The translations under genes and the position numbers were made by a program. From Nemertoderma westbladi (taxonomy: Eukaryota > Animalia > Xenacoelomorpha): a DNA stretch of 63,717 bases. Under the pieces are notes generated by a model, which did no database searches, was not told the DNA's origin, and saw only the letters and a list, made by a program, of their open reading frames with translations. The stretch covers positions 1-63,717 of the forward strand of contig JAUCBJ010001439.1 of NCBI GenBank assembly GCA_032718475.1. Reading direction: 5' to 3'. This document shows, piece by piece, positions 9,001 through 34,000 of the stretch. How positions within the stretch are numbered: position 1 is the stretch's first letter; every line of letters starts with the position of its first letter.

Positions 9001-12000
9001 AGTCAACCTTCGTGCTGCCTTCGACCGCGAGGTAGACGAACAACTCGCGATGGGTATTATCGAACCGGCGGGTGATGAAAACGACCCGGGCACCTGGCTC
9101 AATCCAATGGTAGTGACACGTAAGAAAGACCCGAACTGTGCAAGGATTACTGTAGATCTACGAGAACTGAATAAAGCTACAGTGCGACCGACCTACTTCA
9201 GTCCGAGTCCCTTCCATGTTGTGTCTGCGATACCCACATCTGCGGGCATTTTCACAGTTCTCGATGGCCTCAAAGGCTTTCACCAGGTTGAACTCGATGC
9301 CCAAAGCCGACGCCTCACCACCTTCGTCGCTGCCCATCGCGGCCGAATGCGCTATCGCCGCATGCCGATGGGCTGGCATGGCAGCTCAGACGCCTTTAAC
9401 GCACGCATGGACACTGCAATTCGTAACTTGCCTAATACAGGCCGCATCGTCGAGGATATTATCGTCTACTCGAACACCATTGAGGAACACATCCAACACG
9501 TCGCGGTGGCCCTGGACGCCTGCACCCGCGCCAACATTTCCCTCAACCCACGTAAAACCCAGTTCTGCCGCACCGAGGTCAAGTTCGGTGGTTACCTCAT
9601 CTCCAAGGGCCGCTTCCGCATCGACCCAGACCTCACTCAGGACCTGCGGAACTTCCCCCCACCCAGCAACCGCCGTGAGTTGCGCTCATTTCTGGGTCTC
9701 GCCCAACAGCTGGGAAATTCAACTGCCGATATAACTCGCTTAGTGGAACCACTCCGCAGCCTGAACACCGACCGCCACCCCTGGGAGTGGCTCCCGCCCC
9801 ACCAGACTGCATTCCTTGACACCCGGTCCGCCCTGTCTAGCCCACTCTACTTGTCAGGGTTCCACCCCGAGCGACGTACAGAACTCCTCACGGATGCCTC
9901 ACGCCTCTATGGACTCGGCTTTCTACTTCGCCAATGGGACCCCGATAACGCTAAGTGGCTCACCATCCAATGTGGCTCCCGTACCTTAGCCCCACACGAG
10001 TCAAACTGGTCTGGAATGGCGGAGTTGGAGGGGCTCGCCGCCGCCTGGGCAACCAAGAAATGCAGCTACTTCTTGGATGGGCTGAAACACTTTGATTTAA
10101 TCACAGACTGCAGCCCCCTTATCCCAATCCTAAATGACCGCCGCCTTGACCAGGTCTCCAATGATCGGCTCTTGAAACTAAAGACAGCGCTGTCACGTTA
10201 CAACCTAACAGCGCGTCACCAAAAGGGGGCCAAGCATCTCATTGCAGATGCATTCTCCCGCACCCCACAACACCACCCCGTACCCGACGACTTCTTGCTC
10301 ACCCCAGATGACGAGGCGGACCGCTCCTACATCATTTCTGTTGCAGCGACTGCGGCCCTGCAGACAGCGGCCGCTTCCGCCACACCCACTGGGCCCACGC
10401 CATTGGCTGCTCAGGACGCCCGCCTCCGTCAGATACGAGAGGCCGGTCAGAGCGACCCAGTCTACTCATCACTGATCTCGCGCATCCACCACGGCTGGCC
10501 AGATTCGAAACTGGAACTTGTAGACCCCGATCTACAGCCGTACTTCAACCACCGAGCGGATCTACAAGTTATCGACGGCCTCGTTCTCCGTGGCCACCGA
10601 CTGCTGATACCCGCGGCACTGCGACCGGAGACCCTGCGCGTCCTCCATGCCGCCCACCAGGGTTTAACTAAAACTCGTCAACGGGCCAACGACTCAGTCT
10701 GGTGGCCTAACATACACAATGACGTCACACAGACGGTTGAACATTGCCAACCATGTCAAACCCTCCTCCCATCCCACGCGCCGCAACCGCTCCAGTACAA
10801 TGCCGACGCCACCCGCCCCTTCGAACGGGTCCATTCTGATTTATTCGTCGTGAACAACCAACACTACCTTGTGGTCACTGGCGAAGCCACCGGTTGGCCC
10901 CACCTCGTCGTCCTGGGAACCAACACTACATCCAACGCCCTGGCTAACGCCTTCCGGAGCGTGTTTCTGTCCACAGCAGTGCCCCTGATTCTACGGCCAG
11001 ATAATGGGCCACAATTTGTGTCAGCAGAGATCAAACGATTTTACGCCACTTGGGGGGTTCACCTCGACTCGTCCTCCCCCCACCTGCCATGCACAAACGG
11101 CCGCGCCGAAGCCGCCGTTAAGACCTTAAAGAAACTAATAATTGGCGCTTCCAACCCCACTCTAAACCTCGACCAGTTGGCCCAAGGCCTCATGGCCTAT
11201 CGCAACACCCCCAGATATGGGGGCCGATCCCCGGCCCAACTCTTATATGGCCATAACCTGAGGGAAGCCTTGCCGGTACACTATCGCTCCCTAGACCCCC
11301 GATGGCACAAAACCTTCTCGGAGTTGGATTCCATAGCTGAAACCCAACGGTCTAAACTACTGGCCCATTACGATAGTGGAACCCGCCCCCTCCAACCAAT
11401 GTCGGTGGGAGACCCAGTCCTGATCCAGGACCCGGTGAGCCATCGGTGGACGGGCCATGGCACCGTGGTCGAGGTGGCCCCCAAACACGAGTACCTTATA
11501 CGCCAGACAAGCGGCCGGGTGATTCGCCGAAACCGGGTATTCCTCCGCACCCGACACCTCATACCCGCATCCACCCCCGTGTCCCCCCGGCCAGAGACCC
11601 AACCGGTTCAACTTCAACCGAAAGGGACCATCGAGGACCCCCCACAGGAGACCCCAACCACGGCTGCCGAACAGCCCACGCCCCACGAGATTCTGCCACC
11701 AGCCCCCCCCCAAGCCCACCTGGTCCTCCGTTGTGGCTCGACCAGCACCACCGCGCATAACCGCCCAGGGGCCACAACCTATCGCAATCAGTGCCCCTCC
11801 ATCCGTTTCCACCCGATCGGGGCGTATATCCCGCCCCCCACAACGCTATGCAAATAGTGACTACTCACTAGTCACTACCATTACCAACTAACTAACTTCC
11901 CCAATAGATATAGAGACTATCGTATTTCAAATTTGTTTATTTGTTTGTTGATGTTAGATTGGTCACCCCTAACTACCGGAGGGGGGGTATGTGTAGTACA

Positions 12001-12289
12001 CACCCTTAACTTGTAGTTATGTCTGCATGTTATATATTATCTGGTTATGTTGACAGATGCAATATACTATTCAGTATTCACTATCTGCTATCAGACATTT
12101 ATGGCGTTAGATGTTGGTTAGTTGTAAATTTGTATTAATATATTCTTAATATTACTTAGTGTACCGTGAGTTTATTTTGTTTTCAGTCCAAATTCTGATA
12201 TAATAAAAGCGTCGACGTCCTTGAAGATTGACCAATCAGCGTTCTTCGGACAGGATGAAAACACAGCCAACAATGCTTCTATTGGATAG
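26..12289 (+). CDS. PhyH-family 2OG/Fe(II) dioxygenase (phytanoyl-CoA dioxygenase/ectoine- or proline-hydroxylase-like); exons 26-157, 859-1061, 1753-1976, 2702-2855, 12187-12289 (~271 aa; true start may lie upstream of the window)
   Basis: GT-AG exons join in phase (0,2,1,2). Motifs: GY-LVRNL, HxD in WHQDYG, ENGCLQVIPGSHK, distal His in MQPGDCLFFHSNLIHSAG, RR. The frame is open back to base 2. Confidence 0.9.
2010..2301. mobile_element. Tc1/mariner-type MITE in PhyH intron 3
   Basis: ~60-bp terminal inverted repeats (CACCATGTCCCGTAA..GTGTCATTTTCTGATGACAC + C/G run), TA on both flanks, no ORF. Confidence 0.85.
2950..5616 (+). repeat. 13-bp tandem satellite (CTCATTACTAACA)n, ~200 copies
   Basis: Directly visible; variants CTAATT, ACCAAC, CACCCA. 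Confidence 0.98.
5637..7052. mobile_element. piggyBac-like non-autonomous element inserted in the Gypsy 5' LTR
   Basis: TIR CCCTATTACCACTGGGG / CCCCAGTGGTAATAGGG; TTAA duplicated at 5633-5636 and 7053-7056, single TTAA in the 3' LTR; internal ~160-bp subrepeats in both orientations. Confidence 0.93.
7304..11857 (+). CDS. Gypsy Gag-Pol polyprotein (1517 aa)
   Basis: Zn knuckles CQQCGYPPHAQGKPC and CRHCGRTGHYDRMC; protease DTGA; RT LDGLKGFHQ, MPMG, IVEDII; RNase H TDAS..ELE; integrase LHAAHQG..CQPC, DNGPQF, NGRAEAAV. Order PR-RT-RH-IN. Confidence 0.95.
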   Translation: MDPKDPRNPHAFILRATPPRFDIETERHSWPIWKEEWSAFLISSGLANLYIEDPGENPNAATSAALLRQRNCHVRAALTAAFSRPTNGIVRGLALPAVINDDATAVVARLDAHIQGGTNIRVHRHELLRCRREPEETPETYLVRLRDIAIKCGFREFNTAEAHTDDRLLDQFIAGFGDKDVTENLLRLPAGQTLAAALQCPQLVWTARKDAASLALAPPTGTAIHTEPTANAASAGRPGRGHNRYSGHPTAARGMSDNGTGKCQQCGYPPHAQGKPCPGLKATCRHCGRTGHYDRMCRSKPNANTQPTRAPRQPPAQAHNIGDSELTVYDGSPDNAIVHSAWGEPTAYTSSMIQFAPLATVAVGIHLPGKRSTSQRHKLQFLPDTGANITAIPLCIYTSVGGNVQRLDNSAPPPQPPRMANGSRSGWTFRGSFPATIEFHPANQACRTDVWVLDGLRQSILSRADCFTLGIMSSPYLNPGPTATLQPQVSSATESHPNPAATPSPTTKPDTTVITPAFRDAEWAKLLRQFPTPLAGICRVMDGGPISIKLHPGSRPVTAYHHRPIPVNLRAAFDREVDEQLAMGIIEPAGDENDPGTWLNPMVVTRKKDPNCARITVDLRELNKATVRPTYFSPSPFHVVSAIPTSAGIFTVLDGLKGFHQVELDAQSRRLTTFVAAHRGRMRYRRMPMGWHGSSDAFNARMDTAIRNLPNTGRIVEDIIVYSNTIEEHIQHVAVALDACTRANISLNPRKTQFCRTEVKFGGYLISKGRFRIDPDLTQDLRNFPPPSNRRELRSFLGLAQQLGNSTADITRLVEPLRSLNTDRHPWEWLPPHQTAFLDTRSALSSPLYLSGFHPERRTELLTDASRLYGLGFLLRQWDPDNAKWLTIQCGSRTLAPHESNWSGMAELEGLAAAWATKKCSYFLDGLKHFDLITDCSPLIPILNDRRLDQVSNDRLLKLKTALSRYNLTARHQKGAKHLIADAFSRTPQHHPVPDDFLLTPDDEADRSYIISVAATAALQTAAASATPTGPTPLAAQDARLRQIREAGQSDPVYSSLISRIHHGWPDSKLELVDPDLQPYFNHRADLQVIDGLVLRGHRLLIPAALRPETLRVLHAAHQGLTKTRQRANDSVWWPNIHNDVTQTVEHCQPCQTLLPSHAPQPLQYNADATRPFERVHSDLFVVNNQHYLVVTGEATGWPHLVVLGTNTTSNALANAFRSVFLSTAVPLILRPDNGPQFVSAEIKRFYATWGVHLDSSSPHLPCTNGRAEAAVKTLKKLIIGASNPTLNLDQLAQGLMAYRNTPRYGGRSPAQLLYGHNLREALPVHYRSLDPRWHKTFSELDSIAETQRSKLLAHYDSGTRPLQPMSVGDPVLIQDPVSHRWTGHGTVVEVAPKHEYLIRQTSGRVIRRNRVFLRTRHLIPASTPVSPRPETQPVQLQPKGTIEDPPQETPTTAAEQPTPHEILPPAPPQAHLVLRCGSTSTTAHNRPGATTYRNQCPSIRFHPIGAYIPPPTTLCK

Positions 12290-13007: not shown

Positions 13008-16000
13008 TTATTCTCTCTTTGCTGGTTCGGGTTCTTTAACTAAAGCCATTAATTTCTCTATTTTAGCTATTTCCTGCTCCTCTTTGCTTGGTTGCTTTGT
13101 TGCTTGCATCGCTGCCAACCCTTTCTTCTCTTTCGGCATCTTCCTGAGATTCGGCGACAGCTTCAATGACGTCACGTAACCCCTATCGTCGCCGACGATA
13201 ACAATAGGTTGAGTCGGATTGAACGCAATGTGAGTGAGTCGCGTCTTCTTCTTACTCACGACCATCTGATCGCAGATCGACGAGTATTTATTAACGTTCA
13301 GATCGAATACGTGAACGCGACCGTCAGCCGTTACGGCGGCGAACACCGTGGAGGAGTAGGGCGACCAGGCGACGTCTCCCACCGAACTACCGAGATCGAA
13401 GACGAACAACGGCTCCTGTTTGTGGTACGAATGATCCCAAATCTTTACCGTCCAATCCGCAGAGCACGATATGTAGACTTTAGGGTGGAAGACGTTCCAA
13501 TGGATACGGTAGACAGCCATCTGATGCGCGACGCTGGTGTCTAAGAATTGGCTTTTATACGCTTTCGAACACTTATGGATTTTTCCTTCTTCTGTCCCAA
13601 CGAGGAACAGGTAGTCAAGGCTTCTATGGAAGTCGAAGGATGTCCCGCAGCCTAGATGGATGAGTTGGCTGGTGTCGGTGGTTGGCTCTTGGAGGCCCTC
13701 GTCTAGACGGAGGTGGATGATGTCCGTGCAGTTGAGTTCGTTCTTGACGAGGGTCCAACAACAGACTCGTCCGTCGGAACTGGTGCTGTAGAAGTTGAGG
13801 TTGTTGTCGATATCGTCGCGTTGCCAACGCACTTGCCACACTGGATCGCTGTGTAGGATATAAGGAAACACAACTGGGTGATTTTTATAAAATAAATAAT
13901 GGTATAATATTTTTTATAAATGGTAAACCCGAAAGACGTAACCCCTCAACCCCGGGGGCAACCTGAATACACCACTGTCTTGGCAATAAATACACATGGC
14001 ACGATCATAAAAACTAGTCTATATCACTCATACCATACGTAATGAACCCAATTCTCTTGACATTTACATTTTGCGCTTTTGATTCAAATAAAAGTAGCTG
14101 AGAACACAAAAATCAGCTTAACAATAAAAATTACTACAACTTATATTTGGCTATGGCCAATGGCATATCCATCATAACATAAAGTATAGAATGTAAGTCT
14201 CGGAACTTGTTACATCGGAAGGTGTTTTAATCTCGGAAGTTCAAATTGAGTTGAGGCTTGAAAATTCAAAATATAAGAATAATTGACTTTCAAGATTCAA
14301 CAAAATTACATACCGACGTAATTATTTGGACGTAAATTTATCCTTAAAATAAAATAAGCGACATTTATCTTCAATAAAAGCTGCCAGAATCTGTAGAGAA
14401 TTTTAGGAGACCCAGTTGTGCTACTTTAGCCATTTACATATATTTTTAATAATAATTGTTTCTTTATAAATAATTATGTAACTTACGTGTGTTTCCCTCC
14501 CTTTGCGGTGCACATGTACTGGGCGGATCCGGGACGGAGCACGTTGAACACCCCGACAGCCCCATCGTAGAACCCCGCGCACAGTAGATACGGGTAGTCG
14601 GGGTGGAAGTCCAGACACATAACCCCACTCTCAGTATCAAACTCAAACTCGGGGTAACTCGGATTCTTCAGTGAGTAGCAGAGAACTAAACCTAAACGGT
14701 ATAAAAAATATGGGTTGGTAAACGAGCAGAGAACTAAACCTAAACGGTACAAATATGGACGCGGGTTGGTAAACGAGCTGAGAACCAAACCATAGTCACT
14801 GACTCACAACTGGTATCATTAGATTAAAGTAACATTACAATGACTAACCCTTAGTCGGTTTGAGATAATCGTATGACCCGTGCCCGGTGGCGAACAGATC
14901 GTAGTACTGGGTGTTCCAGCTGAGCGAGGTAACCGCTAGACGTTTCGCCGGTTCATGCGAGAACCGCCAGAGGGGAAGTAGACTGCCCTCCTGGTCGCGG
15001 AACTCGTCCGAGGTGTCGTCCCAGAACTTGTAGTCCTGGCTGATTTCGTCGAAAGTGTTCTGATTAACCATGCGTTCTAGAATCTTAGAGGAATGTTCTA
15101 CGCGCGATATATCGTCCGAGGTTGATTCAATCTGTAGTGAAAATAAAAATAATAAATAAAAATATGATATAATTATCAATTTCTCAGTAAGAAATACTTA
15201 GACTGAGTCTAGATTTTGAAATATATTATTTTTTACCTATTTTTTTTTTACCTATGCTTGAAAAGGGATGTGCACCAAAAGGATAAATAAGTACTTTAAT
15301 AGGAAAAAGTGGCACCAAGAGAATGAGTATATATGAAAATATAAATATGCGCGAGAACCCCTGCCCCCCCCCCCCCCCCGTTCCATTTGTTTCATAATGT
15401 GTTACGTGTTTGTTGCCTAATGTGTGACGTGTTTGTTGTATGTATGTACTGTATGTTTCTACCAGCCGCTGTCGTATTCGGTGGGGTGTTGAATATTTAT
15501 TGCTGGGGAATTCTCACCAATTTTCCTGTCGCGTCGGGCCAATCTCTACATCGACGTAGTACGTTAACAGTAAATGGTGGTTGAGCGGTTGGTGTCCACG
15601 GTCCGTGTATCGATAGTCTGTGAGCTGCTACTGAGCTACTACGATTTTTGTTCCCGTTGCGTACCGCATTAATATGTGCCATAGTGCGTGTTCTGATTGA
15701 TTTATATGTTTATCCTACGTAACTTTCATTGCATGTGTTGCATGTGGTTTGGTATAATACGTTTTTTTGTGTACAATGTCTCCATTTCGTTGTTGTGTCC
15801 ATTTGTCGTGAGTTGATAAAGGACTGTCGCCCGAAATATACTCATATCGTAACATCTTTTTCTTTTGATTCCATTTGGTCACTTATACATAGGTCCAGCC
15901 AACAAAACAAACTCTTTATCTAATCTTGACGAATAAGCGGTATATAAGGGTTTTCGAGGTCGTTGATCACGATAAAACTTGTTAAAAATATTTTCTGAGA

Positions 16001-19000
16001 ATGTGTAAGGGAATATTTTTATGAAAAAACAACCGAAAATTCCGGCAAACATATCATTCCGACCGGAACCGGAATCTGTCAAAAACTGCTGGAATTCCGA
16101 CCGGAACGGAATTCAGGTACATCACTAAATGAATATATATAAAATATTGAATACTGTTTATCTGTCTTGATGACAGGTATATATATATAACAAATCGAAA
16201 CATTATTTAATCTCATTTGGTAGTTAAATAATCTATTTTATATCTCACCTGTAAAGTTTTACGTTTCTTTTCGTCCTCCCTCTTTGAGGTTGTTTTCTTT
16301 TCTTTCGCTTTCTCCTGCTGCGCCAAGTCCTCCATATAGGCATCGTAGATCTCCCATTGGTTGGCGTTAGCGGCGTAGTCTGCGCGCGGTGGCGGTTCCG
16401 TCTGGATGCCGCGCTCCCGGTATGGGTTGTTAAACGTCTGAGAGGCGCGTTCGCTGAAGTTAAACTGAAAAAAATATGTGACAAAACATGGATGGGATGG
16501 TCTCTGTCGGGTTTATGGTATAATATACCAGTTCCAGTATACCAGTTACTTTGGTTATTGTAACTACCTGTTTGGCTGGTTTCGTCTCTGACTTTGGTTA
16601 TTGTAACTACCTGATTGGCTGGTTTCGTCTCGGACTTTGGTTATTGTAACTACCTGATTGGCTGGTTTCGTCTCGGACTTTGGTTACTATAACTACCTGA
16701 TTGGTTGGTTTCTTCTCGGACTTTGGTTATTGTAACTACCTGATTGGCTGGTTTCGTCTCGGACTTTGGTTATTGTAACTACCTGATTGGCTGGTTTCGT
16801 CTCGGACTTTGGTTATTGTAACTACCTGATTGGCTGGGTTCGTCTCGGACTTTCGTTATTGTAACTACCTGATTGGCTGGTTTCGTCTCGGACTTTGGTT
16901 ATTGTAACTACCTGATTGGCTGGTTTCGTCTCGGACTTTGGTTATTGTAACTACCTGATTGGCTGGTTTCGTCTCGGACTTTGGCTATTGTAACTATCTG
17001 ATTGGCTGGGTTCGTCTCGGACTTTCGTTATTGTAACTACCTGATTGGCTGGTTTCGTCTCGGACTCTGGTTATTGTAACTACCTGATTGGCTGGTTTCG
17101 TCTCGGACTTTGGTTATTGTAACTACCTGATTGGATGGTTTCGTCTCGGACTTTCGTTATTGTAACTACCTGATTGGCTGGTTTCGTCTCGGACTTTGGT
17201 TATTGTAACTACCTGATTGGCTGGATTCGTCTCGGACTTTGGTTATTGTAACTACCTGATTGGCTGGTTTCATCTCGGACTTTCGTTATTGTAACTACCT
17301 GATTGGCTGGTTTCGTCTCGGACTTTGGTTATTATAACTACCTGATTGGCTGGGTTCGTCTCGGACTTTGGTTATTGTAACTACCTGATTGGCTGGTTTC
17401 GTCTCGGACTTTGGTTATTGTAACTACCTGATTGGCTGGTTTCGTCTCGGACTTTGGTTATTGTAACTACCTGATTGGCTGGTTTCGTCTCGGACTTTCG
17501 TTATTGTAACTACCTGATTGGCTGGGTTCGTCTCGGACTTTCGTTATTGTAACTACCTGATTGGCTGGTTTCGTCTCGGACTTTGGTTATTGTAACTACC
17601 TGATTGGCTGGATTCGTCTCGGACTTTGGTTATTGTAACTACCTGATTGGCTGGTTTCGTCTCGGACTTTCGTTATTGTAACTACCTGATTGGCTGGTTT
17701 CGTCTCGGACTTTGGTTATTGTAACTACCTGATTGGCTGGGTTCGTCTCGGACTTTGGTTATTGTAACTACCTGATTGGTTGGTTTCGTCTCGGACTTTG
17801 GTTATTGTAACTACCTGATTGGCTGGTTTCGTCTCGGTCTTTGGTTATTGTAACTACCTGATTGGCTGGTTTCGTCTCGGACTTTGGTTATTGTAACTAC
17901 CTGATTGGCTGGTTTCGTCTCGGACTTTGGTTATTGTAACTACCTGATTGGCTGGTTTCGTCACGAACTTTGGTTATTGTAACTACCTGATTGGCTGGTT
18001 TCGTCTCGGTCTTTGGTTATTGTAACTACCTGATTGGCTGGTTTCGTCTCGGTCTTTGGTTATTGTAACTACCTGATTGGCTGGTTTCGTCTCGGACTTT
18101 GGTTATTGTAACTACCTGATTGGCTGGTTTCGTCACGAACTTTGGTTATTGTAACTACCTGATTGGCTGGTTTCGTCTCGGTCTTTGGTTATTGTAACTA
18201 CCTGATTGGCTGGTTTCGTCTCGGACTTTGGTTATTGTAACTACCTGATTGGCTGGGTTCGTCTCGGACTTTGGTTATTGTAACTACCTGATTGGCTGGG
18301 TTCGTCTCGGACTTTGGTTATTGTAACTACCTGATTGGTTGGTTTCGTCTCGGACTTTGGTTATTGTAACTACCTGATTGGCTGGTTTCGTCTCGGACTT
18401 TCGTTATTGTAACTACCTGATTGGCTGGTTTCGTCTCGGACTTTGGTTATTGTAACTACCTGATTGGTTGGTTGCGTCTCGGACTTTGGTTATTGTAACT
18501 ACCTGATTGGCTGGTTTCGTCTCGGACTTTGGTTATTGTAACTACCTGATTGGCTGGATTCGTCTCGGACTTTGGTTATTGTAACTACCTGATTGGCTGG
18601 TTTTATCTCGGACTTTCGTTATTGTAACTACCTGATTGGCTGGTTTCGTCTCGGACTTTGGTTATTATAACTACCTGATTGGCTGGGTTCGTCTCGGACT
18701 TTGGTTATTGTAACTACCTGATTGGCTGGTTTCGTCTCGGACTTTCGTTATTGTAACTACCTGATTGGCTGGTTTCGTCTCGGACTCTGGTTATTGTAAC
18801 TACCTGATTGGCTGGTTTCGTCTCGGACTTTCGTTATTGTAACTACCTGATTGGCTGGTTTCGTCTCGGACTTTGGTTATTGTAACTACCTGATTGGCTG
18901 GATTCGTCTCGGACTTTGGTTATTGTAACTACCTGATTGGCTGGTTTCATCTCGGACTTTCGTTATTGTAACTACCTGATTGGCTGGTTTCGTCTCGGAC

Positions 19001-22000
19001 TCTGGTTATTGTAACTACCTGAATGGCTGGTTTCGTCTCGGACTTTCGTTATTGTAACTACCTGATTGGCTGGTTTCATCTCGGACTTTCGTTATTGTAA
19101 CTACCTGATTGGCTGGTTTCGTCTCGGACTTTGGTTATTATAACTACCTGATTGGCTGGTTTCGTCTCGGACTTTCGTTATTGTAACTACCTGATTGGCT
19201 GGTTTCGTCTCGGACTCTGGTTATTGTAACTACCTGATTGGCTGGTTTCGTCTCGGTCTTTGGTTATTGAAACTACCTGATTGGCTGGTTTCGTCTCGGT
19301 CTTTGGTTATTGTAACTACCTGATTGGCTGGTTTCGTCTCGGACTTTGGTTATTGTAACTACCTGATTGGCTGGTTTCGTCACGAACTTTGGTTATTGTA
19401 ACTACCTGATTGGCTGGTTTCGTCTCGGACTTTGGTTATTGTAACTACCTGATTGGCTGGTTTCGTCTCGGTCTTTGGTTATTGTAACTACCTGATTGGC
19501 TGGTTTCGTCTCGGACTTTGGTTATTGTAACTACCTGATTGGCTGGGTTCGTCTCGGACTTTGGTTATTGTAACTACCTGATTGGCTGGTTTCGTCTCGA
19601 ACTTTGGTTATTGTAACTACCTGATTGGTTGGTTTCGTCTCGGACTTTGGTTATTGTAACTACCTGATTGGCTGGTTTCGTCTCGGACTTTCGTTATTGT
19701 AACTACCTGATTGGCTGGTTTCGTCTCGGACTTTGGTTATTGTAACTACCTGATTGGTTGGTTTCGTCTCGGACTTTGGTTATTGTAACTACCTGATTGG
19801 CTGGTTTCGTCTCGGACTTTGGTTATTGTAACTACCTGTATAGAATTATATTCCCTAAATGCCGTGGATTTTCAAAATTTATTTTTATTCGAATTAACTT
19901 TGTAAAGATTGCTTTGAGTTCTCATTCGTATTGGTTCTATCATTTGTGTACTTATCGGTCAAGTGGTTCAGTAGCTCAGTCGGTAGAGCGTTGGAAATTA
20001 TATGTGTAGTAGGTATTGAGTTCGAATCCTAGTAAGTGCGAATTATTTTTTGTACAGAATTTCAACTCATTTAAATTAACCGCTACAAATTAATTGCATT
20101 TGTCTGTACCAATGAGACTGTAGTTATTTGATTGTAACCAATGTCGTGCAAGTTATATATTAGCTGGACCAATAGCTATCTTTAAAACCCCGTTAGAACC
20201 CATAGAACAATCGAGAATTTTCTCGATTGATTGCGGCACAAATTTGCTATATAAAGGTGCGATTTGTTCATTCGTGCAAGTTATATATTAGCTGGACCAA
20301 TAGCTATCTTTAAAACCCCGTTAGAACCCATAGAACAATCGAGAATTTTCTCGATTGATTGCGGCACAAATTTGCTATATAAAGGTGCGATTTGTTCATT
20401 AGTTATCAATCTTATATCTCAATACTATTACACTTACAATCTACTTCTCAGATTATCTTATCAATATTCTGTCGCGCTTAGTTTATTTCAGATTACATTG
20501 TATTATAATTATATCTTCTGTAATAAAGTCAGAATATTCTCTCAGCTTTTCTATCTGTTTTACTATGAATTCACTACGGTGAACAAACTCAGGGACAGGA
20601 TGGCCGGCTAGAGATCGGGCCGCAGCAATGAACGGGAACATCACGGGAATGTAGACGAGAGACAACCCGCAATACCATCTTGAGTAATTCGCCCATCGCC
20701 TGAAAGGTTAGACAGCGTTCGACGCCTTGCTACCTAAGTATAAGACCAAAAGATCAAAAGGTAGACGTAGTGACACGCTGTAAGCCTAAAATTACATCAT
20801 AGGGACTGTACTGTCTTGATTCAGGAAAACCACAGTAGACCTTCACATTCCTACGGGGGGAGGGAGAGAGAGCAGGCAGATACTAGTACGCAGATAGGAC
20901 GTAGGCACACCGGTACGAAGCATACAAATTGGTAGGGTGCAGCAAACTGTACGCCTAACTCTTGCTAAGTGCAGGTGTGTGTGCGACTATTTGTAGTACG
21001 ACAGTGTCCATTGCATTAGAACTTGTAGGCTAGAGGGGTTGCTGTGTTTTCACCTGAATTGAGATTGTACCGTTCAGGCGGTAGGGCAGTTTACACTAGG
21101 CGCAAATAAATTGAGGCTATTAGGGATACTAACATCTACCGTGTCCCCGCCAACGCCCTAATAGGAAGTTACCCGGACTACCTGGGTGACTAAAATTCTA
21201 GATAGGAGCCAGGATAGCTATTAGTAACTGTACGCCTACAGTAGTAAACTAACACATCTCTTCTTAGTATCAGGGACCTGGTACCTAAAATTGCCGAATT
21301 CTGGGCGTAGCATTAACCCTATGCCTGAATTTGAGTCCTGGAAATACGCAAGAGGGGAAGGAACCTTATCATTCGTGAGTATTGGACCTACAAGTTACAA
21401 AATTAGAATATTCGTAAAATGCACACCGTACCCAGTAATTATATATGTGAAGGAGCAAAACTGTTTTGACCGTTCAGAATTAACACACGCGCGTTAGAAA
21501 TTATTTACACCTCAAAATATATAAAATTAACTTTGTCCGTACTGTGCTTTGCCCGCTAGTTAGACATCTCCAAATCTCTGCCTGTACCTAGCTAGCGTCT
21601 CTTTGCCCAACCATATAAATCACACCGCGGCAAAGTATATGAGCCTCTTAGTCCGTCAGTGAGTCAGCCTGATTTTAGGATTCGCTGCGCGGGATTTTGT
21701 TTTATCGAAGTTTGTCTGCTCGTTGACTGTTTTCTGCCTCACCGGTTATAAGAGATCGATACTGCAATATATTCGCTTACTTAGAGTTTACTGTTTTGGT
21801 GAGAAGGTCGGATTTATGATTTGATTCACAAACTTTACAGTAGGATATTGCAGGTATTGTTGCTGTCTCTTCCAATAGTAGGAATGTGTTTTACTGAACT
21901 ACGGTTCGGTAGGACTAAAGTTATTTGAAAATTTTGTATTTTGAGGTAAAAATTTATATTTGATTAGCTAAGTGCTAATTTTTTGAAATAAAATTTGATT

Positions 22001-25000
22001 TGAACCGCGTGTAAAATATTTTGGAATTGAATACCGGTGTTTAAAGGGGTTTAAATACCATATTGTACCGGTACAAAATTTTTCGTAAAAGTAAAACCTA
22101 ACTCTTTTGTTTTTTCAGGATTCAGAACTCATTTCTAGACTGTAACGGGAGCAAGACCGTGTTTAGCAAGTTTGGGAGATAGATAACTCAACAACTTTGG
22201 TTGGGAAAATCGCGTTTCGTCCGCAACGTTAAAAACGGAAAGGTTCACGTCCGGTTTGTATCTGGGAATCTGTTTTTCTGGAGAATTATTGGAGTGGGTG
22301 AGTTCGAAAAGTTGCATAAATAAGTTAGGCATTACAGTATTAGTTAAAATTATTGTGGGTTCCACTGTCTCAAGTATTTATGCATTCCGTATGATTTCTT
22401 TGTTCATTGCTGAATTAGTCCGTATTATTGTATTTAATTTACCTTTTGATAACGCATATCGTTATCCGATTTATTTGTTATAAAATTGGCCGCTAGGCTA
22501 ATTTTATTATATACTTATTCCGTGACATTTATTTGCTGTAAAATTGGCCGTTTAGGCTAATTTTATCCATCTGCTATAAAATCGGCCGGAAGGCTAATTT
22601 TATAAGACTGTAATTAGTACCGTTTAGATAAATACGGTAAACTCGATACTTTGACACTCACTTTACTTGACTTACAACTACCGAAATGAGTGACAAACAA
22701 GACTATACGAAGAACACACCTACCGACTATGACTCGTGCAACGGAGATAAGTCAGCAGCGGAAGAACAACAGGGGAAGACTTGCGAGCCTACCGAACCTA
22801 CACCGTGTGCGTCACCAGTACATCCAACGGGAGTACCGGATGCCGTAGTACGAGGCGACGGCAGGACCGAGGACTTTCTAACTGTTCCGCAACCTAGATA
22901 TAGGGAAACGGAGATGGTAAGTTCAGCAGGAAGTACAGAAAGTGTGGTTAGAAGCGTCGGTGGTTACATGGCGCATATTACCAGAAGTATTGGAGAAGGC
23001 CAACGCATATTAGACGGGTTGACCGCTCCGATGTCTCGATTCGAGTTCTACACCCTCCAGGTTAGAGTACAGAGTAAAGTATATAAGTCCGTAGATAATC
23101 TAGTTGGCCTACAAGATCTAGCCAGACAGAGACAGGACATGGATACTCAACTTAGAATCCTCGAGAAACTAATGATCGCTAGAGAGAAACTGATTCAGTT
23201 TAAGTCGACGATTAGGCAGATACAACAGGAACAAGCGGACCAGTTGTTAGGTGAGTCAGTTTCGGACGAATTATTACAGCCCGAGGAAGAACAGGAACTG
23301 TACCGACTGGATGAACAATTGAAACACCTGACGGATCACTTACGCATGTGCGGCAAAGACGTCGGAGATTGGAAAACCGTGCCGGAGGCTACGAGGGAAA
23401 CTTCATTCGCACAAATTGAATCGGCACCGGGAATATTGGATCAATCGTTGGTGAGTATTCGTAGCGAAATTGGCGAGGGAAGTATGGTTACGTCAGAAGT
23501 TGCTCGACAACAGCAAGAATTCTACCGACAACGACGAGAAATGGAGGAACAAGCTCAACTTCTAGTGATGCAGGCAGCAGTAGAGGAAGAGAAGCTACGC
23601 GTTGCGAATATAGCGAGAATCTCTCATCTACAGGAACAAGCTGAATTAGAAGCAGCTGAAGTAGAAAGGTTAGAGGTAGACATTGCCCGACAAGCGGCAG
23701 CGGCAGCGGCCGAGTCAGAGCGACAAGCGGCAGCGGCAGCGGCCGAGTCAGAGCGACAAGCGGCAGCGGCAGCGGCGGAATTAGAACGAAACAGGTTAGT
23801 TTCGGAAGCACGGGCCGAAATGAAAACACGGCAAATAAAAGCTCAATCCGCTATACGACAAGCAGAGTTTGAGGCGCAACAACGACAAACGGAACAACGA
23901 GAGAAGACAGCTAAACTTCATTTCGAACTCGAGAAGAAGGCGAGAGAATTAGCGAACGCTGAGGAAGATCTGGATCAAAAGGCCCGCGATTGATCAATGA
24001 GATCTCGAGACGGACATGACTTGGACCAGATAGAGGTAAGACATCGCCAAATTCAGGAACGAAAGAAGGAAGGAAGCGTAGGAGCACCCGGACGGGAACG
24101 ACAATTAGTAAAAGACTTGTGTCAACGATTCCCACAGGTAACTCATATGTTTGCACCGGTTACGACTAAGGAACCTGTTTCGATTGCAGGTAGTAGTAAC
24201 ATTTCTCCTATCCATGGTGCGACGGAACACAGGTTTGTTATTCCGGACGAGTTTACACCGCCAAGAGCAACGTCGTCGCCTATTCCGAAAGTTAAGGTAA
24301 GTAACCCACCGATTACAGATCGTAGTAGTTTATTGACCGGACCTGCACTACTGACGACAAAACAGGTGAGTCCACCTCCGACGCCAAAACCTGTTACACA
24401 CTACGCTTACCCAATGACGTTTAGGCCAACAAGGCCTTTGGATTCAAACGCTGTCATTCGCCCACCGGTTCAGTTTACATCGCAATCTACGACTTCGAGG
24501 AAGACTTGTGAGCCTACCGAACAACGGAGAACAGTGGATACGCGACCGTTCAACCAATTTACATCGCAATCTACGACTTCGAGGAAGACTTGTGAGCCTA
24601 CCGAACAACGGAGAACAGTGGATACGCGACCGTTCAACCAATTTACATCGCAATCTACGACTTCGAGGAAGACTTGTGAGCCTACCGAACAACGGAGATC
24701 AGTGGACGATGTTCCGAAACGAAACGTGAGAATTCGTACGACGCAACGAACGCGAGCACGTCGACCACCATATCCGGATGATAGTAGTACTTCGAGCAAA
24801 TCGGATTACCCGAAACGCGAGGTATTTAGAACAGGGGCGGCCGATGAATATAAACGCGAGCGTTCAGACAACTCCTTTGCAGACAATCCTCCACAGAATA
24901 CACCAACACAGAAGGCGTTACAACCAACGGACGCAATTAGTACACAACAGTTCGCCGACATCCTGCGACCAGTTGTTAATAAGTTGGCTCAGATCGAGGA

Positions 25001-28000
25001 ACGTCTGGAGGAAGGTTACACCGATAGTTCGAGGAACACTGAATTCGAACACAATAGACACCCGAAGGAACCACAAAGACCGGTACCTTCAAACCCCACA
25101 TCGTATCAGGGAAAAGCGCCAAGAAGGGAGAATATCAACCTGGTTACCAACCAAGGACGCGAAACTCTGAACGTTGCCGAGGAGATAGCGAAATTCGCAG
25201 CCAGACAAGGATTGCCGGTACAACAACCACCGAAGTTTTCCGGTAGCTCAAAACACTGGCATACTTTCGTAGACTATATCGAATCCCAGATCGCCGTGTG
25301 CGCCTTTACATTACGGGAGAAGTTCAATTACCTGCTTCAAACGTTGTCAGGAGAACCTAAACGTTTGGCGGAGACCTTCGTCGGTGTACCGGACGCCTTT
25401 GAACTAGCGTACGATCGTTTAACTTCGATATACGGAGGTACAGTTAGTATGGCCAGGTCAGTAATAGAGGAACTCTGTAAGGGAGGGGCTATCACTAAAC
25501 CCGTCGACTTATTAAAACTAGCTGACGAGATCAAGAACGCTATCACTACCTTAAGATCCATTGGACAACTTGATTACGGGAATACCCCTACAGTCCTATT
25601 AAAGATCATAGGACGACTCCACCATCGACTTCGTCGGGAGTGGAGAAAGGTCGAATACCAGCAAGAAGAGCGGGGAGGATTCTTAAAATTAGAAGATGTG
25701 TACCTTTTAATATCCAGGGAGGCAGTAGTAGAAACTCGATCCAACTACACCGACCAGCACATCGTGGCAGAAGGGATCACATTGCCATCCTCCAACCGAC
25801 AAAAACCCCAGACAACATCCACTAAGAGGGCCACTTACACCACACCGACGGAATCACGACAATTCTCGGACGGTAGTAGGGTATCTGCGCCCATTGGGAC
25901 AAAACAGACGAGACAACAACTTGGTACCGACTTCAGTGGCTGCCAATACTGCGAGCATTTAGGCAAGCGGTATATCGGTCACAAGTTACGAGGTTGTCGA
26001 CAATTTCGCGAGTTGAACTCGGAAGAACGACGGCTGCAAATACGGCCATTGGACTCTTGTTGGCGGTGTACGCGACACGTCCGTAAAGATTGCCCAAATA
26101 CTGACACTTGTCCATCCTGTGGACGCAACCACGACGGTCTGCTCCACACAGACAGCCACACGCCGACGAAACGCTTCGCCAGGGAACACCCGGAAGCAGC
26201 AGCGAGATGTGATGCGGCCTACCAAAAACGAGAATCGAAAACGACTCCAACCTTCGTGACCCATATTGAGGATTGCTTCTCAGAACAATCCGGATCGTCG
26301 GACGAAGAGTTAGAAGACGACGACGAATATTCCAATGGAGACGAACAACTGTGGATCGCGCTTCTGACTACTGACCAATTGAAGGGATTCAGTGTAATTC
26401 CGATTAAGGTTACTGGCACCAAGGGGAGCAAAAGAATCTACGCGATTCTAGATTCAGCCTCATCTCATAGCTACGTGGACGAAAAGATAGCTGACGTAGT
26501 GACGGATCTTAAACAAGGTAAGCGCGTCAGTTATACCGTAAGTAGTATGCACGGACAGCGTGCAATACCAGTGACACGAGTTAAGTTGGACTTAGACTCT
26601 CTTCTTCCGAAATCGCAACACAGTGAGAGGGAGAGGTCTTTGTTACCCTTTAAAGATCTAACCTTTGCGGCCACGAAGGACTTTAGTAACCTACTAGGTC
26701 CAGTGCCGGAACAATCTCTAGAGGACCGTAAGTATTTCAGACACCTTGGTGTACCCGAATGTCCTGTCAATTATAGATCGGTAGCAATGCTGATCGGGAC
26801 GGACCAATTCAACCTACATCAGGTGTGGGAAACCAGACCATCGGCAGTCGTAGCGGGAAACGCATACGCCTGCAGAACGCCGATAGGGTGGTATACTCGA
26901 GCGCCTGTGCGCACACTAGACGTAAGTGACGAGGAAGACGATGTACAGAGTACATGTAGTTTATTAACTACAAATTCAATTCATTCCTTTTCACACGACG
27001 TGAACCATACTACACTACAGTCGACAAAACATGACAGACGTGTAACTAGTATGATAAGTCACAAGGAGCGGCTAACCCACCAGCGGAGTTTAGAACTTGG
27101 GGAGAAGACGAGTCAGCTAGAGATTCCATCGACGACAGATGATAGGCTTGCGAGTCTACCTACCCCAATAACCTCAACAATACCCGTCGATATCGATGAT
27201 GACGCGTTGAGAAATCATCAAATGGAACAAGCCGCACTGGACAAAGAATTAACGGAGAAGACTATCAGGTGGTTAGAACAAGATACAGCTGAACCTGGTA
27301 GCTACGAACCTTGTATGTTGGAACAGGAGAAACAATCTCTGAAGATCATGGAAGATACTATCCACCAGACGAAAGACGGACATTATGAGGTGGGGATGTT
27401 ATGGCGTAGCCAAAGTCCTAAACTTATAAACAACTACCCACTGGCTTTAAGACGTCTACACTCAATACGGCAACGTCTATTAAAGGACGAGAAAGCCCAT
27501 CTGCAGTATAACACTCAGATGGAGACGTATTTGACTAAGGGATACGCTATCCGAATGACTAACCCGGAGATAGTGACTGACCAAACCTATTACTTGCCAC
27601 ATCACTATGTGAGACATCCCGACAAACCAGATAAAGTACGCGTAGTCAATGATTGTGCGGCTCTATTTGAGGGAATGTCCCTCAATAGTGAGTTAATGGA
27701 TGGACCAAACATGAATAATTATCTTATGGGGGTGATTATGCGCTTCCGTCAGCGTCAAGTAGCTTTTACTTGCGACGTTGAAGCAATGTTTCACCAAGTG
27801 AGAGTGTTAGAGCGAGACAGAGACAGTTTGCGGTTCCTCTGGTACCCGGAAGGAGACTTAAGTCTACCACCGGCGACTTACCAAATGCAAGTTCGCGTTT
27901 TCGGTGCCAGAGACAGCCCAAATTGCACGATGTACGCCCTAAAGCAGGCCGCTAGGGATCAGAAACACCTGTATGACCCAGAGATAATTAAAATCGTAGA

Positions 28001-31000
28001 ACATGACTTTTATGTAGACGACGGTTTACAGAGTTGCGATACAGTAGAACGTGCTACAACAGTAGCACATCAATTACGGGACTGCTTAGCGGGCGGAGGT
28101 TTTAACCTCACCAAATTCGCCTCAAACAGTGCCGAATTAGTAGACTCATTCGGGACGACTGAGCGTGGAGGTGGTGACATAGACCTAGAGTTCGAACCAC
28201 TACCGACGACTAAAGTGTTGGGGCTCTTTTGGGACCCAAACACAGACAACTTTCGAGTGAAAGTGAGACTGGACAGTCAAGAGAACACACTGACAAAGAG
28301 ATCATGCTTGTCAAAGTTGAGCCGATTGTTCGATCCGTTAGGATTCATCAGTCCAGTGATACTGCAAGCCCGCATTTATATGCGCAGTATATGGAAGGAT
28401 GGACTAACATGGGACGAGCCGATCTCATCAGACCAAGTGGACTTATGGAAGACCTGGGAGGCGGAATTATCTTCGCTAGAGGATTATTCCATACCCAGGG
28501 TTTACTTTCCATTACAAAGTACATTTCCTGACAACTTGGAACTACACTGTTTTTCTGACGCCAGTGACAATGGTTTTGGTGTGGCAGCGTACTTGCGCAG
28601 ACAAGTAGACTCAGACGAGTTCGATGTTTCGCTCATTACTTCTAAGGCTAAGACCATGCCTACTAAGTATATGACGACACCACGAGCTGAGCTACAAGCC
28701 GCAACCCTGTCAACCACCATCGTGAACCTCATACAGACAGAACTACAGTCGAGTTTACAGATATTTTATTGGACTGACGCGACGTTGGTTTTATTTTACA
28801 TAAACAACGACACACTCGAATTCAAGACATTCGTAGCTAACCGTCGCGCGGAAATTCTAGACCGTTCAATAAAAGAGGATTGGCGACATTGTCCCGGACC
28901 ACAAAACCCAGCTGATATTGCGTCGCGAGGAATGATGCCTGAGGAATTCTGTAAACCGGAGAACAAAGAATTTTGGCAACACGGACCCCAATTCTTGCAG
29001 AAATCGACACAAGATTGGCCTCCGTTATACGACAACAAATCTAACACTATCCCTAAGGACGCCGAAATCAAGAAACCAAAAAAGGGGAAGGCAAAGAAAA
29101 AGACAACGGCGGCAAAACTCAAGAAAAAACCGAAGGCGAAATGGAAAGATATAACTTCAAAGGTCAAGAGAGGAAGACTTGTGAGCCTTTCTACACCAGA
29201 CATATCGCCAGACGGTCAACCAGACACATTACTAGACAGTCGACTAGACATTTTGTCAGAAACATCACAAAATGTTCTACCGGACATTAGTAATGTATCG
29301 ACTAACAGTAAAGCCGCAGTTTCCCTATTGGAGCGGCCTTCTATTGACATACAACCAGATACGTTACCAGACGTATCACCAGACACATTACTAGACAGTC
29401 GACTAGACATTTTGTCAGAAACATCACAAAATGTTCTACCGGACATTAGTAATGTATCGACTAACAATAAAGCCGCAGTTTCCCTATTGGAGCGGCCTTG
29501 TATTGACAAACTACCAATTTTGACACACTTGAGCAACCATAAGCACGGTGAAACTTCATGTATTACAGATGTGGGTAGTACCTACGCTAATGTAAATACA
29601 GGTGTTACTTTGCGCTCAAGAGACATACCGAACTTGCAACCTATGGTGAAACCTGGGATTAATATCGGCAGAAAAATAAGTTTACCGAAACCCACTGATC
29701 CCATAGAGTTCAAACCACCATTAACGATCGACTTACAAAGTACCGACAATCAAGGTAAGAAGACGAAGAAGGACAAATTACTTGTAGACCCGGACGGATC
29801 AACAGTCAACAAGGGAATACTTACCGGCGGACCCGTGGGCCCTTCTAGTAAATCAAAACCTTCCAAAATTTCCATTGACTTACCTGATGACGTCACAAAT
29901 ACTTACGTCGACCGTATTGTAAACTTAACAGACTCTTGGACAAACGCTTGCCGAAAATTAGCGTGGATTGTACGTTTTGTACAATACGTTAAAGGCAAAC
30001 GAGACTTTACACGTCGACTTACATTGGCTGAGATTGACAGGTGTGAGATTAAATTAATTCGCCATTATCAACTGCGATATTTCGCGCGCGAATTCACATC
30101 CATAAATCAAGGTCAATCAATCAAGTCGTCACCAATACTGAGTTGGAGTCCGATTATTTATAATGGCTTAATTTGTCATAAATCTCGGCTTCAAAACATT
30201 GACTTTAACACAAACTTTAGGTACCCAATAATAATACCGCAACATCACGAACTACAACGTGCAATGATACTGGACGCACATTTACATCTGAAACACGCTG
30301 GAAGACACCACTGTCTTTCCTACTTACGTACAAGATTTGTATTAATTAGACCCAGTAAAGCATTAAGTTCAGTGACACGTACGTGTATTATTTGTAAAAA
30401 GGTACATTCTAGAATAGGTACCCAAGAAATGAGTGAACTACCACAAGCACGACTTCAAGCATTCAAACCACCTTTTACAGAGACTGGAATTGATTGCTTT
30501 GGTCCCATACATACGAAACGTGGACGTATACTAGTAAAACGCTGGGGACTGATTTTCACATGTATGTCCAGTAGGGCAGTTCACATTGAACGTGTGATGG
30601 ATCTTTCCACCAACGCGTTTATACTAGCACTGCGGCGATTTATCGCTAGACGCGGACTAGTGAAATGCTTGTACTCAGACCAAGGGACAAACTTTGTTGG
30701 TGCTCGGAATGAGATTGCTAGAGCCTTTAAGAAATTAGATCACGATCAAATCTCGAACGAACTGCAACCTCACAAGATTGTTTGGAAGTTCAATCCTCCA
30801 GATAGTCCTTGGAGAGGCGGAGTCTGGGAGAGATTGATTAGATCTATAAAGACGGCAATGGCAAAGGTCATTCCAGTAAACCACATACTGACAGACGACC
30901 AACTGACAACATTGTTTGTTGAAATCGAGGCAATACTAAATACTAGACCAATAGTATTAGTACCCGATGACAAACAATCTCAGTTCGCTTTGACACCGGC

Positions 31001-34000
31001 ACACCTGCTTATGCAGGCACCGACTACTTTGACGCCGATTTCTATTCCAACAGAAAGCGACAGCTACGGTAGAAAAGCGTGGAAAATCACGCAACTACTG
31101 GCTAACAAATTCTGGGAAATATGGCAAAACCATTATTTGCCCTCTATTTCTGCCAGAACAACTTGGTACAATAACACCCGCGCATTAAAGCCGGGAGATC
31201 ACGTGCTGTTGGCGGAAGTGAATCTAAAAAGACGCTTCTGGATAACAGGTGTAATTTTAGCCACACATCCATCTATGGATAGAGTGACAAGAACTGTGAC
31301 GGTACGGACAATTGACGGTCGTACAGTAGACAGACCGACTCAACGTCTCGTACTTCTTGAAGAGACTCGTAACGAGTCTGGAGACTACAAATTTCCACCT
31401 AATACTAGTAAATAATTAGGAGTTTACAAATAGATTTCCACATACCTGTACACCGTAGTAAGGACAGCGGTAGAATTCCATTGTCTTTATATGTGAACAT
31501 TGAGGGTGGTACCCTTATGTGTCACATAGGAGCGGGATTTGTAGGTATAAGAAATGGAATTCTACTTGGAACTCACAATATTGAGACATTTTCGAAATTT
31601 TAGACAATCCATTTGGATTTGAAAAATTTTTAAAATTTTCTCCAGTGAATAGATTTCAGGGTACAGTCGGGTGGAACTTAAAATTAGAGAAACAAGAGAG
31701 GAAGACTTGCGAGCCTTTCTTAAAATTTTAATTAAATTTTACACGGTCTTGTTTCAATAAGTTACGTCAATAAATAGACTCCCCTATATTTATTACTAAT
31801 TCTTGATTGCTTATTTTCTGATAATAGTTTGGGATCAAAAAGTGAGTATTTTAGACTCACGGCCAGTTTAGCCCAAATTCGTTTTTTACTTCGGCAAAAA
31901 AAATTTTAGATAAGAAGCAGCGTGTCATTAAAGAAACCCTAGATCTTAGGCTATGGGTAGGAGGTTAGAGCGTTGTCGAGCCCAAAGGGCAGACGAAACT
32001 CTCACGTCTCCTCACAACTAACTACAAACTCTGTTGTATTCCCTCTAGTAGTAATGATTATGTAACTACACCCCTAATTATGGAGAAAGGGATACAAGGA
32101 GAGCCGAGATGGGGATATGATATCCAAGAGGAGGCAGCAGCGCCATTCGAAAGATTTGGAGCCAAGGACTATACTATATTTGGTATAAAGGAATTATCGG
32201 AAAGTACAGCGAAACTCGCGAGAACTAAATATGACTCGAACGTATTAAAGAGAAGGCAAAACGCATTAAACGAAAGAATCGAAAGTTTGCGCCAAACCTT
32301 CAACGAACTTTACCCGTACGACGCTTTGTGTGATACGGGAGACATTAGCGAAGACCCCGATACTGAAATTAGTCGTTTGTATCATACCATGCAATACCTA
32401 AAGGCGCACGAACCTATGCCCGCGGTACGCGATGAATTCGATGGAATGCATCTTTACAGACGAACTCGAGGGGACGATAGAGAAACCAAGGAAGCATTTT
32501 CAGTTTATAAACTTTATTATCAATGCGGTTCTTGTATGCGCGAACAACGAAATGCGATTCCGATGCGTTTGAATAAGGAAAATCCCGAACCGATATTGGC
32601 GAGGTGTTCGAACCATCAACAACTACGCTACCAGGAAGGAGGGTATCCTTTATCGAATCCATATCATTCATTTGCTATGACCGGACCAAAGGCGGGAGAA
32701 ACTGTCATTTACCCACCTAAGGTTGTTGAACCCGATGTATTTGAACTTACGCTGGACGAGGCGAATCAGTCAACCCACGAAAAGAAAGAAGCTCTTAGCC
32801 TATACAGAGCCTACAAGGCTTTCGAGAAAGGTGAGATGGAAGAATGGGGTGGAAGACTCGCGAGCCTACCTTGCCATTGGACGTCACACGATCAAACTTC
32901 AGCTAAGGAGATGACACCGGAAGTTTTCGAGAGCATAAACTTTGCTCAAAACGTTATTCAGAGACTACAGATTGCATCCCCGGAGAGGCCAAGAGAAATG
33001 CAACCGTATAGTACTTCAACTACGAAACCATTGAGTACGACACTCAATTTCCCTATTAGTATACCAGTCCGACAGGATACGATGTACGAAATACCCATCG
33101 TGGATCATCCAGAAATCATTTCAAACTTGGAGTTTCTTCCTGCAGTTGTTTTCAGCGATATGAGTAAGATATATGATTTACGTAGACATATTACTCAAAA
33201 GGTCGTGTACAACGTTCCACCTCATATTCAAGATTTCAAGGAACTGGATAGAGCTGGTGCCGATATAGCTCCGAGTAATCTGAAAGGATATCTAACCAAG
33301 ACGATTCGTTTATGGATTGGAACCGGAACCTTCGAGTCGGATACAGATATTGCCGCGGATTGGCGAGGTAAGGTTATTCGTTTCGAAGATGATAAGGATA
33401 TAGAGAAGATTTGGCAACCTTCGGAAGAATTGTTGGATGAATGGAATAGAACGTTTAGATCGTTTCAGGAAAACGGTTACATGTTTTACGATAACGAGGG
33501 CGGCAGTCATCAGCAGAGTTTGACTTCTAAGACTATACAGATTAGAGCGGCGGACGGAGTCCTGCACGTTTTCAGTAGACAGAGGAGCGACAAACGAATG
33601 CCGATACCTCCAGCGAATACAAAGCGACACCATCTTATCACCGATATAGTAAAGAAGATGGACCAAGCTTGTAATATCGACGCTAGAATGCTACCGAAGA
33701 TGGTAAGAAACATGATTTTAGATAAAACTGTTGTAAAGATTGGATCAGGAGTAAGGGAGGATTTAATTAGCGACTTCGCCGGCATGACGGACAGCGATGA
33801 CCGACTACCGACACCTTACGTCGACACTCGACCTCTTATTTTGTGGTCTATAGAACAGGGATATTTTCGTGAGTACAATACTCAGAAGACCGGAACTGGA
33901 TACATTTCCTACCTGTTATTCAATTGGGATTATAAGGAAGGTAAGAGAAACAAGTATATTGAAACTTATGGAGAAGGTGATACTCCAGATATGAGTGAGT

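Follow-up and report, generated by a model that had tools for sequence, protein, structure and literature searches.

The window, that is, the whole stretch of 63,717 nucleotides of Nemertoderma westbladi DNA that was analysed (contig JAUCBJ010001439.1), contains BEL-A, a young BEL/Pao element of 18.6 kb without the element BEL-B that is nested in it. Features of BEL-A are on the forward strand (+). The 5-bp target-site duplication is found at 19834–19838 (5′ copy) and is identical to 45504–45508; the 5′ LTR, delimited by alignment to the 3′ LTR, occupies 19839–21877 (2039 bp) and has the termini TAT...ATA, not TG...CA; the 3′ LTR, found by self-comparison, occupies 43593–45503 (1911 bp). The insertion site is an array of a 43-bp satellite (16548–19838 and 45504–47514), and the same two LTR ends are seen at the junctions of other BEL-A copies (public contigs, loose ends). 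The LTR termini thus read TA...TA at 19839 and 21877, and those of the relatives L016 and L035 likewise end in TA. In self-comparison, the LTR pair is 4 substitutions and one 128-bp duplication apart (99.8% identical), and copies of the family are very numerous in organism A (3833 contigs matched in run X1, 1539 in run X3); from the near-identity of the LTRs and the abundance of the family it follows that BEL-A replicated recently with its present primer site. The 128-bp tandem duplication, at 20144–20400, carries TATA-like boxes at 20248 and 20376 and is a candidate promoter; a short purine-rich tract is present at 43584–43592, directly before the 3′ LTR, in the position of a polypurine tract.

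The coding part begins with an ORF of 440 aa in the gag region (22671–23993), coiled-coil-like and lacking any Pfam match; its stop codon (23991–23993) is in frame with the next ORF, stands between the two and may be either a read-through signal or a lesion. The BEL/Pao gag-pol ORF that follows (23994–31415; 2473 aa) matches DUF1759, Peptidase_A17, Integrase_H2C2 and DUF5641 and contains the motifs of protease, reverse transcriptase (RT; YVDD), RNase H (DAS) and integrase. BEL-A belongs to BEL/Pao by its LTRs flanking gag and pol, by the order PR-RT-RH-IN and by its BEL/Pao-type domains; its RT/RNase H is most similar to BEL/Pao, the best homologues all having Peptidase_A17 at no more than 44% identity, and no closer relative than this 44% was found in the protein database. 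Membership of the Tf1/sushi chromoviruses is contradicted by the BEL/Pao domains and by the absence of a chromodomain match.

BEL-B (34240–41259, +) is a nested BEL/Pao element of the tRNA type with a 5-bp target duplication of its own; it has a TGG-type site after its 5′ LTR, as had been described before, which we take to be a site for tRNA-iMet. Its RT is 26% identical to that of BEL-A. It interrupts an extra coding region of BEL-A, the 5′ part of which (31969–34239, +) likely encodes a WRN-like DEDDy 3′–5′ exonuclease domain, a call made by one tool (atlas score 0.93; PF01612 on 11–38% of cluster members); Pfam, PDB and homologue searches with this ORF gave no match, and a single-sequence fold reached a pLDDT of only 32.5. 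The part 3′ of BEL-B (41265–42830, +) has a weak zinc-knuckle match. DEDDy ORFs occur in LTR elements of rotifers, with no link to priming reported in the portion of the source available [PMC5408684]; no report of a DEDDy ORF in BEL/Pao was found in the literature.

Further features of the window are a 13-bp satellite of about 205 copies (2950–5616); a palindromic element of about 770 bp with 161-bp internal repeats (5960–6730); a Ty3/gypsy element with identical 93-bp LTRs and a TGG-type primer-binding site (PBS; 7053–12098); a host ORF with WD40 matches (13008–13913, −), presumably resembling the C-terminal part of a dynein intermediate chain; and a region at 52074–59690 with a decayed BEL/Pao-like ORF (56298–58520, −) and a 1.2-kb inverted copy, 78% identical (52074–53281 and 58494–59690).

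The end of the 5′ LTR of BEL-A at 21877, confirmed by alignment to the end of the 3′ LTR at 45503, is directly followed by a non-tRNA PBS with the sequence GTAGGAATGTG (21878–21888, +), which occurs once in the window. No TGG is present, so that an 18-nt site for a host tRNA, as judged by TGG after the LTR, is absent. The preliminary description had pointed to an exact 11-nt reverse complement of the PBS inside the LTR and to a pairing that halts at the LTR boundary, and both observations were borne out: the candidate self-primer lies at 20844–20854 (+), 1023 nt from the LTR end, with a second copy in the 3′ LTR at 44470–44480. BEL-A thereby shows the pattern from which self-priming is predicted, a PBS 0–5 nt from the LTR end with at least 10 nt complementary to the own LTR. 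Within the family, no variant in either arm is found among the variant rows listed for the contigs; one X4 loose end has a primer with two changes, both leaving G-U pairs. The chance of such a match had been put at about 5e-4. Dinucleotide shuffles of the LTR agree with this figure (9 of 20,000 at offset 0; 32 of 20,000 at offsets 0–3), but the leader itself shows a higher background: among its 812 11-mers, with the PBS counted, 4 find an exact complement in the BEL-A LTR, about 0.4% per position, and 1 of 60 leader windows of BEL-A also reaches 11 nt. Because the leader background exceeds the shuffle estimate, the 11-nt match of BEL-A by itself is suggestive only.

The strong evidence comes from relatives, which were drawn from a metagenome scan covering 25 of 64 parts, in which the best 80 of 563 relatives, chosen by likeness to BEL-A, were taken; 24 of these 80 loci entered the assessment of complements. 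In 14 loci both LTRs reveal where the LTR ends, and removal of the duplicate L032 leaves 13; two of these LTR ends were shifted by 1–2 nt by hand to finish on CA. Each LTR was searched unspliced and with one GT-AG intron removed. An exact cognate complement of 10–15 nt in the own LTR, at an offset of 0–4 from the LTR end, is present in 12 of the 13 relatives; when LTRs and PBSs are mismatched, 6 of 182 pairs reach 10 nt (4 of the 6 among L012, L022 and L080, which share one primer). TGG is present in the first bases after the LTR in none of the 13. As the cognate complements are of different letters, this comparison favours the earlier proposal of a self-priming BEL lineage, which we regard as supported. 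The complement is contiguous in 4 of the 12 relatives and in 8 is formed only across a GT-AG junction with strong donor and acceptor; L080, a miss in the automated search at 7 nt, shows 12 nt across a junction, one pair being G-U, when aligned by hand. The cognate match exceeds all 60 own leader windows in 11 of the 13; L062 has 1 of 60 windows equal, L080 24 of 60. Complements to their own LTRs are only 5 nt long in the window's two TGG-type elements, a weak control since these LTRs are short.

A second set comprised 10 more loci in which only the LTR start is visible and the LTR end is not independently known; two of the 10 belong to families already represented in the first set. On first pass 3 of them were without match and 2 had distant matches only; with splice rules relaxed after these misses, a complement of at least 10 nt is obtained in 9 of the 10 loci (12 of 90 mismatched pairs) and one of at least 11 nt in 8 (2 of 90 mismatched pairs). 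The tenth locus, L009, has an 11-nt match at offset 5, found by eye. Altogether about eleven distinct PBS sequences match their own LTRs, mostly across a splice junction, 0–5 nt from the LTR end. BEL-A and 10 of the 13 relatives have a primer with AC as its last two bases. The distance from primer to LTR end is 62–203 nt in the 12 relatives with an exact complement. In the relatives the primer lies 100–285 nt into the LTR (deeper in L080) and needs an upstream exon; only 4–9 nt of primer precede the donor in the intron-bearing relatives. Most relatives are compact (contigs or elements of 6–7.5 kb), and none were found among viral contigs. The RT/RNase H of BEL-A is 38–42% identical to those of the 13 relatives. 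In a quick tree of 78 rows, from which 5 of the 80 loci with short matches were left out, BEL-A is placed on a long branch among the relatives, apart from BEL-B (SH-aLRT 97); its placement among them is unsure, and the grouping is partly circular because the relatives were fetched by likeness to BEL-A.

Pairing in BEL-A is predicted by co-folding to extend beyond the 11 nt on both sides, to 38 bp at −48.7 kcal/mol, which the preliminary description had missed; 7 pairs are added on one side of the PBS duplex and 20 on the other. The arms of the predicted flanking helices (all +) are 20833–20839, 5′ of the primer, pairing over 7 bp with 21890–21896; and the purine-rich segment 20862–20884, pairing over 20 bp with the U5 arm at 21853–21873, at the end of U5. 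Scored without the PBS, the 20-pair flank is the best of 1925 LTR windows and is reached by 5 of 2000 and 18 of 2000 shuffles. Conservation of a helix between primer flank and U5 across the relatives was tested and is not supported (combined p 0.13 without BEL-A); as the relatives do not share it, the helix may be an addition of BEL-A for its long loop. Whole-RNA folding gives the PBS duplex a probability of 0.95–0.99 for RNA starts at 20780–20844, 0.03 for a start at 20700 and 0 for starts at 20591 or 20410; forcing the duplex costs 3.8 and 10.9 kcal/mol, and folds of such length are unreliable in either direction.

Transcript evidence comes from run X4, which is labelled DNA by a guess and is probably RNA: it holds a splice joint, described below, and places of A>G change number 106 in X4 versus 18 and 17 in X1 and X3. 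All runs consist of assembled contigs, which show neither starts, ends nor levels. One X4 contig reveals a GT-AG intron at 20707–22118 (+) that removes primer arm and PBS together; its joint (20706 to 22119) has a depth of 249.8 in X4, with 23 nt on the short side, and a depth of 0 in X1 and X3. Another contig extends from about 20591 up to that donor at 20706 and onward into sequence outside the window. Since the spliced X4 contig reaches upstream, an RNA made from the 5′ LTR has its start 160 nt or more before the primer; the TATA-like box at 20376 would put the start about 440 nt upstream. The stretch of LTR between the primer and the LTR end is likewise covered by X4 contigs, as strand transfer would need. 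The idea that the primer sits inside the transcript, possibly several hundred nucleotides from its start, thus has indirect support from spliced RNA, which is not the genomic RNA, and meets a counter-indication in the folding, which favours a start near the primer.

The LTRs hold some further signals. A segment of U3 with tRNA-type A-box and B-box, resembling a Pol III promoter (19972–20028, +; 3′ LTR copy at 43726–43782), is, together with that copy, the sole A- plus B-box match in the window; a variant copy keeps B-box-compatible sequence. ARAGORN found 0 genes and Rfam 0 matches for a folded tRNA in it. The segment may derive from a captured tRNA or a SINE head and act as a Pol III promoter or insulator; as a source of the primer it was rejected, its predicted 3′ end mismatching the PBS and the segment not being a tRNA. 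A 3′ end made at 20854 by splicing was likewise rejected, GT being absent after the primer. One X4 contig (21036–21734) differs at 102 places, mostly by A>G in the sense direction, and looks like ADAR hyper-editing of LTR RNA. At 43560–44030, contig depth in X4 falls roughly tenfold beyond the initial 450 nt of U3, which weakly hints at frequent RNA ends near the AATAAA at 20522/44148. Loose ends of X1, X3 and X4 at 21866–21885 indicate copies in which a spacer of 7 other bases lies between one LTR end, with the first 8 bases of the PBS attached, and a repeat of the LTR end; this tandem unit may parallel the PBS-directed insertion of Tf1 cDNA [excerpts of PMC11042837].

Taken together, the BEL-A lineage has no tRNA primer site, and it is very probable that it primes reverse transcription with its own RNA in some form. 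The form that we consider moderately probable is one in which the LTR-internal segment pairs with the PBS and a cut 3′ of the primer frees the priming end. Here 20844–20854 would pair with the 11 bases after the LTR, in an unspliced RNA starting some 160–440 nt upstream of the primer and folding back over about 1 kb, presumably aided by the two flanking helices; the cut would fall just 3′ of the primer segment and would probably be made by the RNase H of the element, as in Tf1. Minus-strand DNA would then copy U5 back to about 20855 and jump to the 3′ LTR, from which the primer and all upstream sequence would be regained. Regain of the upstream part, introns included, would explain both the persistence of introns in the LTRs and the existence of intron-free forms, and plus-strand copying of the primer would rewrite the PBS and so keep primer and PBS matched. 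Spliced RNA, having neither primer nor PBS, would have no role but that of mRNA. Host splicing would complete the primer in the many relatives where an intron splits it; that of BEL-A is ready-made. We lean, a shade less firmly, towards a wider picture: a large and widespread tRNA-free branch of BEL/Pao with an internal primer that is cut out and in most families splice-assembled, of which BEL-A would be a giant intron-free member, with extra helices bridging 1 kb and one splice switching between a primer-bearing genome and a primer-less mRNA.

In another reading, genomic RNA could, as in Tf1, start at or just before 20844, its first 10–11 bases being the primer, with the upstream promoter making spliced mRNA only. 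The strongly favoured duplex for starts at 20780–20844, an initiator-like YYANWYY at 20843 (21 such sites in 2039 nt) and the control of Tf2 primer content by alternative starts [in the portion seen of PMC5341516] speak for this; we nevertheless think it rather unlikely, as there is no TATA-like box near −30 of 20844, the sole transcript evidence begins upstream, and the 4–9 nt before the donor in intron-bearing relatives would make a very short first exon. Improbable in our judgement is a primer in trans, that is, the 3′ end of a separate element RNA (a short RNA, one from the 3′ LTR or a second packaged copy) trimmed to the duplex, possibly by an exonuclease-like protein of the element itself. 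The resemblance of the extra ORF to WRN-like DEDDy 3′–5′ exonucleases, the second primer copy in the 3′ LTR and the escape of pairing in trans from folding competition would fit; yet the compact relatives have no room for the extra ORF and show the same signature, the DEDDy ORFs of other LTR elements have no link to priming in what was available of PMC5408684, and the domain call comes from that one tool.

A further reading takes the complementarity as a conserved RNA fold that hides the PBS, for switching or packaging, with a host RNA or tRNA fragment as the true primer. Half-tRNA primers without TGG do exist in Copia [according to parts of PMC6317226], but about eleven PBS sequences that match their own LTRs would each need a different host RNA, and we hold this to be improbable as well. 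Chance, finally, would mean that the match of BEL-A is fortuitous and its primer site lost or changed. The empirical background of about 0.4% per position and the long branch of BEL-A leave some room for it; against it stand the offset of 0, the AC end as in the relatives, an independent flanking helix at the same site, and the recent replication with the present site to which LTR identity and abundance testify, so that it appears very improbable.

For Cer7 of C. elegans, a BEL-type element, it has been proposed that the primer comes from the element itself, as a tRNA-like sequence carried inside it and used with a tRNA-type PBS, unlike the LTR segment of BEL-A. This proposal was not found in our literature search. 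Self-priming is known for Tf1/sushi, Tcn1 and the TAR lineage of Copia [passages of PMC6317226 and PMC4600332]. Tf1 RNA pairs its first 11 nt with the PBS and is cleaved by RNase H between nt 11 and 12 [according to the part seen of PMC7175516]; about half of the cDNA retains a copy of the primer at its end [excerpts of PMC11042837]. BEL-A shares with Tf1/Tf2/Tj1, Tf1/sushi and Tcn1 (Ty3/gypsy) a PBS that adjoins the LTR and complements about 11 nt of the own LTR, and the lack of a tRNA site [parts of PMC7175516, PMC4600332 and PMC6317226]; it differs from the Tf1 group in being BEL/Pao, in a primer that is probably internal instead of the first 11 nt and is 1023 nt from the LTR end, and in having relatives whose primer is often intron-split. 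The TAR lineage of Ty1/copia (Houba, Osr-1) is similarly predicted to self-prime, with a PBS–LTR complement of at least 10 nt located 0–5 nt after the LTR; unlike the relatives of BEL-A, these are plant Copia elements, and a splice-built primer is not mentioned in the sections available [PMC6317226].

The ICTV description of Belpaoviridae gives an 18-nt PBS for host tRNA-Arg or -Gly, LTRs of 0.2–1.2 kb and a genome of 4.2–10 kb [PMC8742986]. BEL-A agrees with Belpaoviridae in the order Gag-PR-RT-RH-IN, the BEL/Pao-specific Pfam domains and the 5-bp target duplication, and departs from that profile in lacking a tRNA site, in LTRs of 1.9–2.0 kb, in its TA...TA ends and in its 18.6 kb. A search of titles and abstract openings, with most subscription papers, Repbase notes and supplements outside its scope, found no report of self-priming or splice-built primers in BEL/Pao; "tRNA" and primer binding are absent from the available portions of two BEL/Pao papers [PMC3118150, PMC554778], and nothing is added on BEL/Pao priming by those of PMC3601003, PMC8220671, PMC5443660 and PMC5445492. 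Self-priming of BEL-A is likely a variant of the Tf1-type mechanism in a superfamily where none has been described.

The reference account of Belpaoviridae has a host tRNA as the primer of replication [PMC8742986]. If the reading given here is true, self-priming arose or persisted in a third LTR superfamily, broadly in animals, and in a form unlike that of Tf1, with an internal primer that is often intron-split, so that the spliceosome would license replication. It would also explain the failure of PBS finders on such elements, and it predicts that these elements escape control by tRNA fragments.
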